Below are positions 5,411 to 38,290 of a stretch of 64,000 bases of DNA, piece by piece. The position numbers and the translations under genes were made by a program. The number at the start of each line of letters is the position of its first letter. The first letter of the stretch is position 1. This DNA comes from an uncultured Methanosarcinales archaeon (lineage in GTDB: Archaea; Nanobdellota; Nanobdellia; Woesearchaeales; UBA12501): positions 12,367 to 76,366 of the forward strand of contig CAYNHV010000001.1 in the NCBI GenBank assembly GCA_964397315.1, read 5' to 3'. The notes below the pieces were generated by a model. It worked only from the letters and a program-made list of their open reading frames with translations, was not told the DNA's origin and did no database searches.

Positions 5411-6771
5411 CTTAATCCCCCTATGAGCTTTTCCATCCTCTCCCTTGCCCTTTTCAGGCCGTCTTCTGTGTCAGCTTCCATGTTGAGCCTGAGGAGGGGC
5501 TCGGTGTTTGACTTTCTTAGGTTGAACCACCACCCCTTGAATTCCATGGTCAGCCCGTCAACATGCATTATGTTGACAGCCTCCTGCTTAAGGCTTTCCT
5601 CAACCCCCCTTATGACCTTGTCCTTGTCCTCTATCCTGAAGTTTATCTCCTCTGAGCTGTAATACTTCTCAAAGGGCTTCAGCGCCTCTGAAAGCCCGCA
5701 TCCCTTCTTTGACAGGACATTCAAGACCTTGACCATTGTTATCATGGCTGAGTCAGCATACCAGAAGTCCCTGTAGAAGCAGTGTCCGCTCTTCTCTCCG
5801 CCGAAGAGTATGTCATCCTTTCTCATCTTTTCTTTTATCAGGGCGTGGCCTGCCTTCCACAGCACAGGAATGCCTCCCTTCTCTTTTATCGTGTCCCTCA
5901 CCGCCCAGGTGCTTCTCACCTCGTAGAGTATCTTCTCTCCGGGATTCTTCTCAAGAAATTCCTCAGCCAGGAGGGCTGTTATGAGGTCGCTTGGAACAAG
6001 CCTTCCGTTTTCGTCAACAAAGCCTATCCTGTCAGCGTCACCGTCAAATGCTATTCCCATGTCAGCTTTTCCCCCCCTAACCCTTGATTTCAGCTCCTCT
6101 GTTGTTTCCTCTTTTGAGGGGTTTGCCTCGTGATTCGGGAATGAGCAGTCAACCTCAAAGCAGAGCTTCTCTGCCTCAATGGGAAGGGCTTCCTCTATTT
6201 TAGGAAACACGACAGGGGACATGCCGTTTCCTGCGTCAACCACAAGCCTTAACTTCCTGCTTCTTTTAATCTCTTCTGCAAAAGAGAGCACTTTTTTTGC
6301 GTAATCATCAAGGGGCTTTTTTCCGCTCACACCCCCCTTCCTGGAAGGCTCCTCAAAATTGTTCTCAACAGCAAGCTTCTTTATCTCTTCCATGCCTGTC
6401 TCTCCCCCTATTGGAATTGCCTTTTCCCTGCAGAGCTTCAGGCCGTTATAATCTTTTGGATTGTGGGATGCTGTTATCATGATTCCTGAATCATGGCCGT
6501 AGTTTGCAATAGAGAAGTAAAACATGGGTGTTGTTGAGAGGCCTATGTCAATGACATCAGCTCCCTGGTCTGTTATTCCCTTAACAAGAGACTCATGGAT
6601 TACAGGAGAGCTCTGCCTTGCATCCCTTCCAACAACAACATTGCTGCAGCCCCTAAAAGAGACAAAAGCCCTGCCTATCCTGTAGGCTGCCTCTTCATTG
6701 ATCTGCCCGGGATATACGCCCCTGATGTCATAGGCCTTGAATATTGACTCGTCAATCCTTGTGCCGCCCAT
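5407..6771 (-). CDS. phosphoglucomutase/phosphomannomutase family protein (archaeal GlmM/PMM-like)
   Basis: Active-site 'TASHNPKDYNGLK' phosphoserine loop; four-domain length of 454 aa. Confidence 0.85.
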   Translation of the reverse strand: MGGTRIDESIFKAYDIRGVYPGQINEEAAYRIGRAFVSFRGCSNVVVGRDARQSSPVIHESLVKGITDQGADVIDIGLSTTPMFYFSIANYGHDSGIMITASHNPKDYNGLKLCREKAIPIGGETGMEEIKKLAVENNFEEPSRKGGVSGKKPLDDYAKKVLSFAEEIKRSRKLRLVVDAGNGMSPVVFPKIEEALPIEAEKLCFEVDCSFPNHEANPSKEETTEELKSRVRGGKADMGIAFDGDADRIGFVDENGRLVPSDLITALLAEEFLEKNPGEKILYEVRSTWAVRDTIKEKGGIPVLWKAGHALIKEKMRKDDILFGGEKSGHCFYRDFWYADSAMITMVKVLNVLSKKGCGLSEALKPFEKYYSSEEINFRIEDKDKVIRGVEESLKQEAVNIMHVDGLTMEFKGWWFNLRKSNTEPLLRLNMEADTEDGLKRARERMEKLIGGLR

Positions 6772-13322: not shown

Positions 13323-13488
13323 TGTCAAAAACCACCGGTCAGAGACCGGTGGCATGAAGCGAAAGCTTCATTCTCATTCTTTATTGACCTGTGGTTTTTG
13401 AGCATGCTCAGAAATATACCCTCTGCGGATATGCCTTTGTGGACTTTGTCCACTGGTTAAATAAACCAGTGGTATATTTCTGACATAT
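13323..13488. mobile_element. 166-bp MITE-like structured repeat, copy A (intergenic, 12 bp from the tRNA 3' end)
   Basis: Near-identical (1 mismatch) to 42593..42758. Terminal inverted repeats are TGTCAAAAA / TTTCTGACATA. It has three internal perfect hairpins, one with a GAAA tetraloop. Confidence 0.65.
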
Positions 13489-13500
13489 CAAACATGATAA

Positions 13501-13664
13501 TGCGCCGACCGGGACTTTCGAACAAGGGTTTTACGACCCGAAAGTCAACCACGTGGATTTTCCAGCGCAAACCCTCAGTTTTCGAACCCGGATAGTCGGC
13601 TTGGAAGGCCGAAGTTTGCCAGGCCTGCCCATGGCAGGTCTCATAGCCATTAGACCACCGGCGC
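13501..13664 (-). tRNA. tRNA-Gly(UCC), predicted to contain two introns (24 nt after the D-arm; 66 nt in the T-loop)
   Basis: On the minus strand: acceptor GCGCCGG/UCGGCGC (one G-U) with discriminator A. D-arm GUCU-AAUGGCUAUG-AGAC with GG in the loop. Anticodon arm UCGGC-CUUCCAA-GCCGA. T-arm CCGGG-UUCGAAA-CCCGG. The mature ~74 nt form is obtained only after removing forward 13614..13637 and 13514..13579. Confidence 0.55.
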
Positions 13665-25446: not shown

Positions 25447-25953
25447 ATGAGAAGCCTCAGCAGGAAGTCCCAGATTCCGTCAACAGTGTTTATCTATGCT
25501 CTTGCAGCAATAATCATAGCCCTCATCCTCATATTTGGTTACATGGCAATAGGAAAGCTCATGACCACCTCCTGCGAGACAGAGAAGGCAAAGTTCAAGT
25601 CAGACCTTAAGTCAGTCATAGAAGAGGACGCGACATACGGAAAGAACACAGTGATTGAGCTTTCTGCTCCATGCAATTATGAGGAACTGTGCTTTGTTGC
25701 GAAAAGTGAGGAAGGAGCGCTTTCTGAGGACATAAAAGGAAGGTATCCTCTTGCTGCAGATGTTGCAGAATCCTCTGACAATGTTTTTCTTGCAGACATT
25801 GACGGAAACATAGAGCCGTTTGAGGTTGGAAGATTCAAGATACATGGAGATGCAGCCTACTCACCAGACCTTTGCGTGGAAGAGGACATGGGAGAGTTCA
25901 GGTTCAGGATAAAAGGAGAGGGAGACTTTGCCCTTATAGTGCCTATAAGCTGA
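25447..25953 (+). CDS. membrane-anchored/secreted Cys-containing hypothetical protein
   Basis: N-terminal TM/signal anchor 'VFIYALAAIIIALILIFGYMAIG' and four Cys in the soluble part. 168 aa. Confidence 0.35.
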   Translation: MRSLSRKSQIPSTVFIYALAAIIIALILIFGYMAIGKLMTTSCETEKAKFKSDLKSVIEEDATYGKNTVIELSAPCNYEELCFVAKSEEGALSEDIKGRYPLAADVAESSDNVFLADIDGNIEPFEVGRFKIHGDAAYSPDLCVEEDMGEFRFRIKGEGDFALIVPIS

Positions 25954-26032
25954 AGAGCTGTTTTTGCTGATCTCTCATGGTATTACCCACCCTTATTCCA
26001 CAACCATCAGGCAGGTTTTCTCTTTCTGAAAC

Positions 26033-26133
26033 TGCACAACTTCCAGCTTCTGCATCCAATAAGCCCGCCCAGTAATATGCTTAAAGCGCGCTTAGGTGGA
26101 GTTGGTGCGCTAAGCATATTGAAGGGGGTGGGA
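26033..26133. repeat. conserved ~100-bp intergenic element, copy 1 (contains a 13-bp-stem hairpin)
   Basis: ~85% identical to 29946..30078. The core is 'CTTCTGCATCCAATAAGCCC...ATATGCTTAAAGCGC...TGGAGTTGGTGC...AGCATAT..AAGGGGG'. Lies upstream of a + strand gene. Confidence 0.5.
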
Positions 26134-26212
26134 GATTGCCAAACGAAGTTTGGCAAGTCTAATACTGCAAAACAAAGTTTTGCAGGCCTGAAAATACTTT
26201 GTATTTTCAGTA
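26134..26212. other. three tandem perfect hairpins (8-10 bp AU-rich stems) in a long non-coding leader
   Basis: TTGCCAAAC-GAAG-TTTGGCAA; CTGCAAAAC-AAAG-TTTTGCAG; CTGAAAATAC-TTT-GTATTTTCAG. Confidence 0.5.
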
Positions 26213-26468
26213 ATCCCAGACGCTTGACTAAGCGAAGCTTAGGCAAGTCTTATAATTTCGACTTCAGTCGGAATTATATTTAAGCTTGCGCGAGTCGGGA
26301 TTATTTTTAGGGGGACTTATCCAGATGTAAGTGCGACTGGGGCGGAGGTCAGGTCTGGATTAACCAGAACAATCAGAATATGCATAGGAGATTCTTAATC
26401 ATGATACCTCATATATCCCAACTTGAGCCTGCGCAATCTTTATAAAAAAAGGCCCAGAACAAACTTAT

Positions 26469-27428
26469 ATGGCAAAGTATCTTGTTACAGGAGGCGCGGG
26501 ATTCATAGGCAGCCATCTTGCTGAAACTCTTGCCAAACAGGGCCATAACGTCACTGTGGTGGACAACCTTTTTGACGGGAAGAGGGAGAACCTCAGCAGT
26601 GTCATGGACAGCATAGAGTTTATTGAGGGAGACATCCGCGACAAGCAGGTGATGGGCCGCGCCTGCAAAGGCGCTGATTTCATACTCCACCAGGCAGCGA
26701 GAAGGTCTGTTCCAGCCTCTCTAAAGGACCCTTTTGAGTATAATGACGTGAACATCAACGGCACTCTTAACATTCTTGAGGCAGCAAGAAGGAATGATGT
26801 CAGGAGGGTCTTGTTAGCTTCCTCCTCCTCTGTCTACGGTGATGTGAAGGAATTCCCTGAAAAGGAGTCTTTCAGGCCTGACCCAAGGTCTCCGTATGCC
26901 CTGACAAAGCTGGCAGGAGAGCATTACCTGAGCATATACTGGAAGCTCTACGGCCTTGAGACAGTCTCACTAAGGTACTTCAACGTGTTCGGCCCGCGCC
27001 AGGACCCTAACAGCCAGTACGCTGTTGTCATGCCTCTCTTCATAAAGGCAGTTTCAGAGGGAAATCAGCCGAAAATATTTGGGGATGGGGAGCAGAGCAG
27101 GGATTTCACTTACATAGCAAATGTTGTTGAAGGCAACCTGAAGGCCTGCGCTGCGCCAAAGGAGAAGGCTGCAGGAGAGGTCTTTAATATTGCTGACGGA
27201 AACTCCATAAGCGTCAATGAGATCGCGGGAAAGATAATCGAGATGTTAGGAAAAGAAATAAAGCCTGTGCACGCGGAAGAGAGACCCGGTGATGTGATGA
27301 AAACGCAGGCTGACAACACAAAGGCAAAAAAGCTGCTTGGCTACAAGGGGGATGTCAGCTTTGATGATGGATTGAGGAGAACTGTTGAATGGTTCAGCAA
27401 AGAATTCAGCAGAAATAAACAGCCTTAA
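26469..27428 (+). CDS. NAD-dependent epimerase/dehydratase (UDP-sugar 4-epimerase, WbpP/UDP-glucuronate epimerase-like)
   Basis: 'LVTGGAGFIGSHL', a YxxxK region and C-terminal 'DGEQSRDFTYI'. 319 aa. Confidence 0.85.
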   Translation: MAKYLVTGGAGFIGSHLAETLAKQGHNVTVVDNLFDGKRENLSSVMDSIEFIEGDIRDKQVMGRACKGADFILHQAARRSVPASLKDPFEYNDVNINGTLNILEAARRNDVRRVLLASSSSVYGDVKEFPEKESFRPDPRSPYALTKLAGEHYLSIYWKLYGLETVSLRYFNVFGPRQDPNSQYAVVMPLFIKAVSEGNQPKIFGDGEQSRDFTYIANVVEGNLKACAAPKEKAAGEVFNIADGNSISVNEIAGKIIEMLGKEIKPVHAEERPGDVMKTQADNTKAKKLLGYKGDVSFDDGLRRTVEWFSKEFSRNKQP

Positions 27429-37961: not shown

Positions 37962-38228
37962 TTGGGAATGGGGCATAGAGAGGTTTTCTGGCTCAGGTGC
38001 AGGTCATGCGGGAGGAGAGGGAAGTACATTGCAGACCCTGAGGAAATATCATATCAGAAAGGGCATGGCCTTATCCTGAAGTGGGGCCTTGAGTGCAAGT
38101 TCTGCAGCACACCCCTTACTCATGACAACCTGACAGAGATGAGTGTCAAGGAATTGTATATGTATCTGGCAGGCAGGCAGATTGGTGTTGCTGATCTTCT
38201 GCTGAAAGAGAATCGTTCAGATTACTGA
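37962..38228 (+). CDS. small zinc-ribbon protein (CxxC...CxxC)
   Basis: 'CRSCGRRG...CKFCSTP'. 88 aa. Its stop codon lies inside the 65-bp junction repeat. Confidence 0.4.
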   Translation: MGMGHREVFWLRCRSCGRRGKYIADPEEISYQKGHGLILKWGLECKFCSTPLTHDNLTEMSVKELYMYLAGRQIGVADLLLKENRSDY

Positions 38229-38290
38229 AAGATTTTTCCATAAAACCTTTCAGTGCACTGAAAGAAATAGGGTTTCGGCTGTGGGGATTG
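38225..38290. repeat. ~65-bp junction repeat copy 1 (CTGAAAGATTTTT..AAAACCTTTCAGTGCACTGAAAG..GGGTTTCGGCTG)
   Basis: A direct repeat of this sequence occurs at 40688..40753. It contains the inverted repeat CTGAAAG/CTTTCAG. Confidence 0.55.

Follow-up and report, generated by a model that had tools for sequence, protein, structure and literature searches.

What kind of sequence occurs twice, almost letter for letter, within 64 kb of archaeal DNA, once beside a tRNA gene and once in the middle of a toxin gene? Contig CAYNHV010000001.1 raises this question in a stretch of 64,000 nucleotides (nt), which we call the window. An earlier note on this DNA had described the 166-nt repeat as resembling MITEs, the miniature transposable elements that end in inverted repeats, with imperfect terminal inverted repeats, and had allowed that it might carry a small structured RNA. 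Here we present evidence that it is a palindrome-associated transposable element (PATE), a derivative of IS200-type insertion sequences (ISs; IS200/IS605 family) that lacks a transposase gene and would be mobilised in trans by single-strand peel-and-paste transposition. We put the probability of this reading at roughly 85%. The element is thus very probably of an ordinary kind, found in an under-described host group, and represents a new member or a new family of the IS200/IS605-derived PATEs. No description of the element family turned up in the collection of papers searched.

The two copies and their boundaries

The stretches at 13323-13488 (copy A) and 42593-42758 (copy B) are, as the earlier note had it, identical except at one position; this is G at 13337 and A at 42607. 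Their flanks are unrelated and the similarity ends abruptly on both sides, which excludes a segmental duplication; the duplicated flanks that were named beforehand as the sign of such an event are not found. Neither a third copy nor a notable partial copy lies within the 64-kb window. The description of the repeat as a small, non-autonomous and recently mobile element has held.

Copy B does split a vapC gene, as had been claimed, the product being of the PIN type (PF10130), and the original insertion site can be reconstructed from it. The insertion lies between vapC codon 43 (AAG, Lys) and codon 44 (TAT, Tyr). Lys-Tyr is present at this junction in 16 of 16 aligned PIN/VapC homologues, with the Tyr nearly invariant, and the TAT at the right edge of the repeat is thus the host's Tyr44 codon. 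Excision of 166 nt restores the frame but gives a product of 134 amino acids (aa), while the best homologues have 135; excision of 163 nt restores AAG-TAT and gives a 135-aa protein. The length of 166 bp given earlier hence included the host TAT, and the reconstruction makes the element 163 bp long, TGTCA...TGACA, with boundaries good to +/-1 nt. As a T flanks both junctions, they can slide by one base (13323-13485 or 13324-13486). With exactly 163 nt between AAG (Lys43) and TAT (Tyr44), a target-site duplication is absent, in agreement with the earlier report. The open reading frames (ORFs) that cross the element are mechanical only (40-57 aa), and 163 bp is too short for a transposase. The parts of the element are as follows.

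13323..13485 (or 13324-13486), minus strand: candidate PATE copy A, 163 bp, from the alignment of the copies, with boundaries from the vapC reconstruction and orientation from transposase-bearing relatives
42593..42755 (or 42594-42756), minus strand: candidate PATE copy B, 163 bp, with one difference from copy A, at 42607
13332..13352, minus strand: right-end subterminal palindrome (IPR), CCACCGGTC-TCT-GACCGGTGG; in copy B at 42602-42622, with a G.T wobble on the minus strand
13450..13472, minus strand: left-end subterminal palindrome (IPL), CCACTGGTT-TATTT-AACCAGTGG; in copy B at 42720-42742
13473..13486, minus strand: left-end arm of 13-14 nt, (A)TGTCAGAAATATA, by IS608 geometry (PMC3201880)
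13473-13476, minus strand: TATA at the left guide (GL) position, directly 5' of the hairpin foot, the last four bases of the left arm
13486..13490, minus strand: conserved flank, read as the target, TGATA in copy A; TCATA in copy B, at 42756-42760
13323..13331, minus strand: right-end tail, TTTTTGAC(A), with the predicted cleavage site TGAC at plus-strand 13324-13327
13353..13356, minus strand: CATG at the right guide (GR) position, 5' of the IPR foot, by the IS608 rule (PMC5934647, PMC3201880)
13325..13401: domain 1, stem P1 (13325-13335/13391-13401), enclosing IPR and a poorly conserved hairpin at 13354-13371
13409..13482: domain 2, stem P2 (13409-13420/13471-13482), enclosing a small hairpin at 13439-13453 and IPL
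13400-13409: palindrome GAGCATGCTC, which joins the two domains

The three hairpins reported earlier are indeed all perfect in copy A (13332-13352, 13354-13371 and 13450-13472), but the single mismatch of copy B falls in the first of them. The stems of IPL and IPR are identical at 7 of 9 positions and lie 13-14 nt and 8-9 nt from their respective ends; the pattern CCACYGGT...ACCRGTGG had no match in 100 shuffles. With RNA parameters the plus strand folds at -69.7 kcal/mol (z = -8.75 against shuffled sequence) and the minus strand at -64.3 (z = -8.2); with DNA parameters z is -8.0. The termini TGTCA/TGACA are inverted with respect to each other over 5 nt perfectly, or at 8 of 9 positions imperfectly.

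Relatives with and without a transposase gene

A scan with the query CCACCRGTCAGAGACCGGTGG (there termed the left hairpin), covering one genome per species, recovered the 21-nt hairpin CCACCGGTC-NNN-GACCGGTGG at 75 loci, mostly in metagenome-assembled genomes (MAGs) of Woesearchaeota, Nanoarchaeia, Altiarchaeota and Methanosarcinales. Many of these loci match the element at 94-100% identity over its first 33-37 nt and differ from it in the interior. Four matches to the 21-mer in high-GC bacteria (L017, L031, L045 and L050) share no other similarity and were treated as chance. A scan of viral contigs with the hairpin gave no match.

The transposase link came from a tblastn search with an IS608 TnpA sequence, which gave weak matches in only three loci, each directly beside the hairpin. 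The three ORFs (L064 532-993, L069 3169-3627 and one in L015) encode proteins of ~152 aa with 63-64% mutual identity and carry the H-V-H and Y-I-x-x-Q motifs. They match Pfam Y1_Tnp above its cut-off (E 7e-12 to 5e-16), and score 51-52 bits against the NCBIfam IS200/IS605 transposase model, just below its 55-bit cut-off. Read in the sense of the gene, the 3' end of the L064 element is CCACCGGTCTCTGACCGGTGG-TTCTTCAC. L015 shares stem and tail but has an inverted loop, CCACCGGTCAGAGACCGGTGG-TTCTTCAC, and the loop is therefore no marker of orientation; in L069 the same hairpin is the 5' one. The minus strand of the window reads ...CATG-CCACCGGTCTCTGACCGGTGG-TTTTTGAC(A), which is the layout of the 3' end of the transposase genes. 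It thus corresponds to the top strand of the element, and we infer that the window minus strand is the active one.

Transposases related to these fall into 290 clusters at E <= 1e-10, mostly on contigs of <2 kb, and one member of the family is annotated as 'transposase [Nanoarchaeota archaeon]'. The protein P0233 recurs without any change in about three distinct flank contexts, and so does P0198. The ends of the related ISs (L080-L093) are sharp: on the left, TATAA is followed directly by 10-11 nt and the hairpin, and on the right, the hairpin and a tail ending in ...GTTTGAC or ...TTGTTTAC give way to different flanks. Since identical proteins recur in several contexts with sharp ends, we take the P0233/P0198-type elements to be bona fide IS200-type ISs and not single-copy domesticated genes. 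A further homologue, P0197, with 66% identity, is annotated in a MAG of Candidatus Komeilibacteria, a bacterium of the candidate phyla radiation. The same groundwater metagenomes (JGI 3300025308 and 3300025309) contain an autonomous IS of this clade (L080-L087, L082/L084) alongside elements L076-L079, which were drawn from a metagenome scan with the right hairpin. The second domain of L076-L079 closely resembles that of the window element, with ~76% identity over the whole element.

These relatives bear on the classical MITE interpretation, by which the TGTCA(A/G)AAA ends would be terminal inverted repeats recognised by a DDE-type transposase in double-strand cut-and-paste transposition. The element does have inverted ends, and its size and lack of coding capacity fit. 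Yet no duplication is present where the original site can be reconstructed, and the flank is conserved on one side only. Moreover, the transposase-bearing relatives encode Y1 and not DDE enzymes and have no matching terminal repeats, and what is conserved across phyla is the subterminal hairpin rather than the termini. No DDE transposon with TGTCA/TGACA-type ends was present among the 96 loci examined, though no systematic search for one was made. A classical MITE is accordingly close to refuted and hardly to be expected here. What stands of the earlier MITE-like description are the short inverted termini; the functional ends are better sought in the subterminal CCAC...GTGG hairpins, with TGTCA/TGACA a probable by-product.

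Geometry of the ends and the guide rule

The transposase TnpA of IS608 binds subterminal hairpins of one DNA strand and leaves no duplication; its left cut falls 3' of a tetranucleotide external to the element and 19 nt 5' of the left hairpin, and its right cut 10 nt 3' of the right hairpin (PMC3201880, PMC5934647). Four bases 5' of each hairpin foot serve as guides, AAAG reading TTAC and GAAT reading TCAA (PMC3201880, PMC5934647). We applied this rule by setting guide position 1 against position -3 of the cleavage site, 2 against -4 and 4 against -1. The window element has a left arm of 13-14 nt (19 nt in IS608) and a right tail of 8-9 nt (10 nt in IS608), and it is only on the left that the target flank is external to the element.

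At the right end, the CATG of the window element predicts T-G-N-C, and TGAC is observed. The same pair, CATG/TGAC, is seen in most Woesearchaeota copies and in the P0233 IS, while other classes have GATG/TCAC (L064, L015 and the Altiarchaeota copies), AATG/TTAC (the P0198 IS) and AATT/TTTA (L069); all four classes obey the rule. At the left end, ATTT goes with (T)ATAA in three independent ISs, AATT with TT-N-A, in which N is truly variable across ~50 sites, TTTT with AAAA, and TATT with TAAA. In the subfamily of the window element the flank is T-N-A-T-A at a small sample of four sites (the two in the window, TGATA in L076 and TAATA in L078); in sister subfamilies it is TAAAA, TT-N-A or TATAA.

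A simple antiparallel duplex between guide and target was also tried: it fits the window subfamily (TAT/ATA) and the TTTT/AAAA pair, and fails for the AATT subfamilies. The IS608 register fits the AATT subfamilies and only partly the window subfamily. As each of the two registers fits only in part, the 1-nt ambiguity of the boundary stays.

The variable guide position is one of the features that speak to another possibility, namely that the repeats are domesticated in the manner of REP sequences and their composites, BIMEs. REPs are imperfect palindromes of 30-40 nt with a conserved GTAG-type tetranucleotide 5' of the foot, and the gene for the associated Y1 enzyme (RAYT, or TnpAREP) has one unique position, flanked by REP/BIME (PMC3333891). 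Both systems combine hairpin repeats with a Y1 HUH enzyme, form mosaic palindromic arrays and reach a high copy number in some genomes (PMC3333891). Each domain of the window element resembles a REP doublet, relatives in L036, L068 and L075 are mosaics of hairpin modules, one MAG has 39 unique copies, and one transposase homologue is named 'RayT' by JGI. However, the window family has no conserved GTAG-type tetranucleotide; this position varies instead (TATA, TTTT, AATT, ATTT) and covaries with the flank, and the ends are distinct as left and right, with a defined target. The Y1 genes lie between left and right ends that are in direct orientation, an identical gene recurs in several contexts as in a mobile IS, and the best NCBIfam match is the IS200/IS605 transposase. 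A copy inside a coding gene is likewise not the behaviour of an extragenic repeat. We therefore regard domesticated repeats served by a single-copy Y1 enzyme as very improbable.

Covariation of the fold

Full-length relatives in L005, L024, L036, L055, L062, L074 and L076-L079 have a common architecture: a 5' arm, stem P1 around hairpin 1, the palindrome GAGCATGCTC, and stem P2 around hairpin 3. The covariance analysis of homologues that had been proposed for this repeat supports these stems. The consensus fold of 8 sequences has 45 pairs with 97.2% of cells paired, and 19 of the 45 pairs show compensatory double changes, with 7 pairs in stem P2 (helix 4) having compensatory changes. None of 500 shuffles reaches the observed values, and slid controls fall to 32-46% paired. 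P1 and P2 pair the arm of each end, including the guide position, with an internal segment. The hairpin ATGAAGC-GAAA-GCTTCAT, whose GNRA loop had drawn attention, is present in the element, but the alignment shows that it is not conserved among relatives.

So stable and covarying a fold might also be that of a structured RNA, such as a small RNA gene, a ribozyme or a bulge-helix-bulge (BHB) intron, in which last case vapC would still be expressed after splicing. The right hairpin of the minus strand is followed by T5, as in a terminator, and excision of the element does restore the vapC frame. Nevertheless, Rfam has no match in the window at gathering score and, in a scan up to E = 10, only chance-level ones on the element (E >= 0.84), and the GNRA hairpin is not conserved. 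On inspection, the terminal helix TGTCA/TGACA is flanked by bulges of 5 nt and 2 nt, not in the 3-4-3 arrangement of a BHB intron. The two copies are opposite in orientation relative to local transcription, copy A being intergenic and not in a sense-orientation transcript. Furthermore, hairpins of single-stranded DNA to which TnpA binds would be expected to covary just as much. The suggestion of a carried RNA thus found no support in the Rfam search, the relatives or the orientations, and we give it very little credence.

The MAG CAYNRQ01 (uncultured archaeon binchicken_co19_608; loci within L001-L073) has 39 unique copies of a ~180-nt cousin of the element, many of them at contig ends. In these cousins the end of the element and the target TT-N-A recreate a terminal TTTAAA. 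An ORF begins 21-25 nt after this TTTAAA in no fewer than 8 of the 39 copies by an automatic criterion, and in a few more by eye; in L052 a tRNA 5' end follows it after ~24 nt. A spacing of 21-25 nt is that of an archaeal TATA box from a leaderless start. In other relatives, extra mini-hairpins of 25-30 nt, TG(T/C)TCAGRAAT...ATTYCTGA(G)CA, stand between the domains (L036, minus strand, ~5545-5756; L075, 6900-7074; L068), and these make the element family mosaic in the fashion of BIMEs.

Proposed mechanism and known systems

We infer the transposition chemistry, together with a working transposase in this genome, as follows. While the minus strand is single-stranded, its two subterminal hairpins would be bound by a Y1 (HUH) transposase whose gene lies elsewhere; the enzyme would cut directly behind the flanking T-N-A-T on the left and directly behind TGAC on the right. 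The 163-nt strand would be released as a circle, with the donor resealed without gain or loss, and the circle would then be pasted 3' of another T-N-A-T in single-stranded DNA. Single-strand peel-and-paste of this type would explain why no duplication is seen, why the flank is conserved on a single side and why the copies are nearly identical.

The closest known counterparts are the PATEs of haloarchaea, such as HqIRS of Haloquadratum walsbyi (PMC3119063), and the window element has every sequence-level feature by which these were defined. Like them, it is too short for a transposase and inserts without duplicating its target; its near-terminal palindromes are similar to one another and to those of IS200/IS605-type transposons, it has a short conserved 5' targeting oligonucleotide, and the distance between end and palindrome is longer at the 5' than at the 3' side (PMC3119063). 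This likeness is one of described features and not of sequence similarity. The window element differs in its host, a DPANN-type archaeon and not a haloarchaeon, and in its autonomous relatives, which carry tnpA only (IS200 type), whereas most relatives of the haloarchaeal elements are of the IS1341/tnpB types. It also has short inverted termini and two long covarying stems that hold one palindrome each.

With IS608 and ISDra2 (PMC3201880, PMC5934647) the element shares subterminal hairpins at both ends, a target tetranucleotide outside the left end only, a right cleavage site (here a predicted one) 8-10 nt 3' of the hairpin, and, at the right end, a tetranucleotide 5' of the hairpin foot that predicts the cleavage site in the same register. 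Precise excision without duplication would be a further common trait, judging from the sequence of the window. In contrast to these ISs, it has neither tnpA nor tnpB, its hairpins are perfect and lack the extra-helical T of IS608, its left arm has 13-14 instead of 19 nt, and the fit of left guide to target is partial; its clade is known from sequence alone.

Several observations weigh against the PATE reading. No Y1 transposase gene was found in the 64-kb window by tblastn, and only two copies are seen directly in this genome. The right-end rule is broken by the L074 subgroup (CATT) and by three decayed copies with altered spacers (L020, L056 and L072). The left guide TATA predicts T-A-N-T, but the four sites have T-N-A-T, a fit at 2 of the 3 specified positions. 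Evidence from the right end speaks for the shifted boundary (13324-13486), yet ~20 of 21 Woesearchaeota-type copies have a conserved A (minus strand) beside the right end, which the mechanism does not predict; as this conflicts with the shifted-boundary model, we keep the boundary at +/-1 nt. Nor is the minus strand preferred when G.U is counted against A.C in the stems (8 versus 3 cells, for the plus strand). Finally, IS200/IS605 transposition has no described need for long covarying stems such as P1 and P2. As the known mechanism does not call for them, P1 and P2 may be a functional innovation of a DPANN-wide family, acting as self-extruding cruciforms or at the level of RNA or promoter, a proposal that we consider unlikely.

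The tRNA-Gly locus and the host

Copy A sits between the 3' end of a tRNA-Gly gene (13501) and the start of a 92-aa ORF (13307).

13501..13664, minus strand: tRNA-Gly(UCC) gene with two non-canonical introns, from ARAGORN after in-silico intron removal and from an intron-less orthologue

On the unspliced sequence ARAGORN calls no tRNA, and Rfam has none at gathering score; a permissive Rfam scan gives a sub-threshold tRNA match at 13566-13628 (14.5 bits against a gathering score of 29). This is due to the two introns, one of ~26 nt between the D-arm and the anticodon stem and the other of ~65 nt in the T-loop. ARAGORN calls tRNA-Gly(tcc) in ~5,000 variants spliced in silico, and the orthologue in a related Woesearchaeote (L096, ~2005-2077), which has neither intron, aligns exon by exon. 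The tRNA that had been placed 12 bp from copy A is therefore real, but its distance is 14-15 nt. On the other side, copy A ends 15-16 nt before the first ATG of the 92-aa ORF, beside its ribosome-binding site GGAGG, and its hairpin with T5 points towards this ORF.

The syntenic Woesearchaeote locus L096 (DHH, tRNA-Gly, 93-aa ORF, PIG-L and glycosyltransferase) has no such element; its spacer is too diverged for an empty-site alignment at base level. A Logan contig of the same organism (SRR7048227; L094 4096-4333), with a 100% identical DHH protein, ends 31 nt inside the element. Such an end is the break expected at a repeat, and indicates that the source sample contains the element repeatedly. 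The same organism is also present in run SRR7048220. The host is an archaeon of the Woesearchaeota/Nanoarchaeota type: MAGs of this type supply the best named homologues of the flanking DHH protein and of the PIN protein, and the window neighbours include an A-type ATPase D subunit.

The disrupted vapC and the toxin-antitoxin island

42464..42592, plus strand: vapC codons 1-43 (PIN, PF10130); reading runs into the element, giving an 88-aa product
42756..43034, plus strand: vapC codons 44-135 and stop, beginning with the near-invariant Tyr codon TAT
42240..42464, plus strand: putative vapB antitoxin gene, 74 aa, intact, assigned by position only; overlaps the vapC start by 1 nt

With copy B in place, VapC is cut short after residue 43; the product as annotated, which is also the one in the source record, has 88 aa and fuses this part to residues encoded by the element. 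An intact VapC of 135 aa is absent from the protein collection searched, so that no empty-site allele was found, and the contig index has no exact match to the putative VapB or to the product of the 92-aa ORF. The putative VapB has no Pfam match.

The disrupted vapBC pair belongs to a small toxin-antitoxin island (40480-43034), in which it directly follows an antitoxin resembling AbiEi and a nucleotidyltransferase toxin, AbiEii (PF08843, E 8e-26). Direct repeats of 92 nt with 97% identity (42073-42164 and 43049-43140) bracket the whole vapBC cassette and duplicate the upstream region and the first 19 codons of a 180-aa ORF at 43082, as if the cassette had been inserted with an exceptionally long duplication. 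The 92-nt repeats contain the 12-mer ATAAACCAGTGG, which equals one arm of the left hairpin of the element; the idea that it is the remnant of an element end was set aside, since it has no partner arm.

Other repeats in the window

Within the intergenic region 25953-26469, the stretch 26136-26311 has a row of five or more hairpins, all perfect or nearly so, such as TTGCCAAAC-GAA-GTTTGGCAA and CTGAAAATAC-TTT-GTATTTTCAG, and a long-range stem TAATCCCAGAC/GTCGGGATTA. They resemble the extra modules of L068 and L075 and the hairpin downstream of tRNA-Gly in L096. A further non-autonomous element, or a structured RNA, could account for this stretch. At 38211-38275 and 40674-40738 lies a repeat of 65 nt with 82% identity, built around the palindrome CTGAAAGATTTTT...AAAATCTTTCAG, and its second copy is just upstream of the AbiEi/AbiEii genes.

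Implications

An odd repeat can thus be explained by a well-understood mechanism, with its boundaries corrected. The analysis also identifies a clade of IS200-type transposases together with diverse transposase-less derivatives, with one 21-nt hairpin common to MAGs of Woesearchaeota, Nanoarchaeia, Altiarchaeota and Methanosarcinales. For the rule that links guide and cleavage site in single-strand transposition, the family is a natural source of covariation data, and it is a practical cause of contig breaks in DPANN assemblies. If the unlikely cruciform role of P1 and P2 were true, the ends would be presented as single strands independently of replication. Likewise, the TATA-like position of the CAYNRQ01 cousins, if truly so, would make them promoter-targeting and promoter-preserving elements in streamlined archaeal genomes. 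In the genome studied here, the consequence is that a toxin gene has been inactivated very recently.

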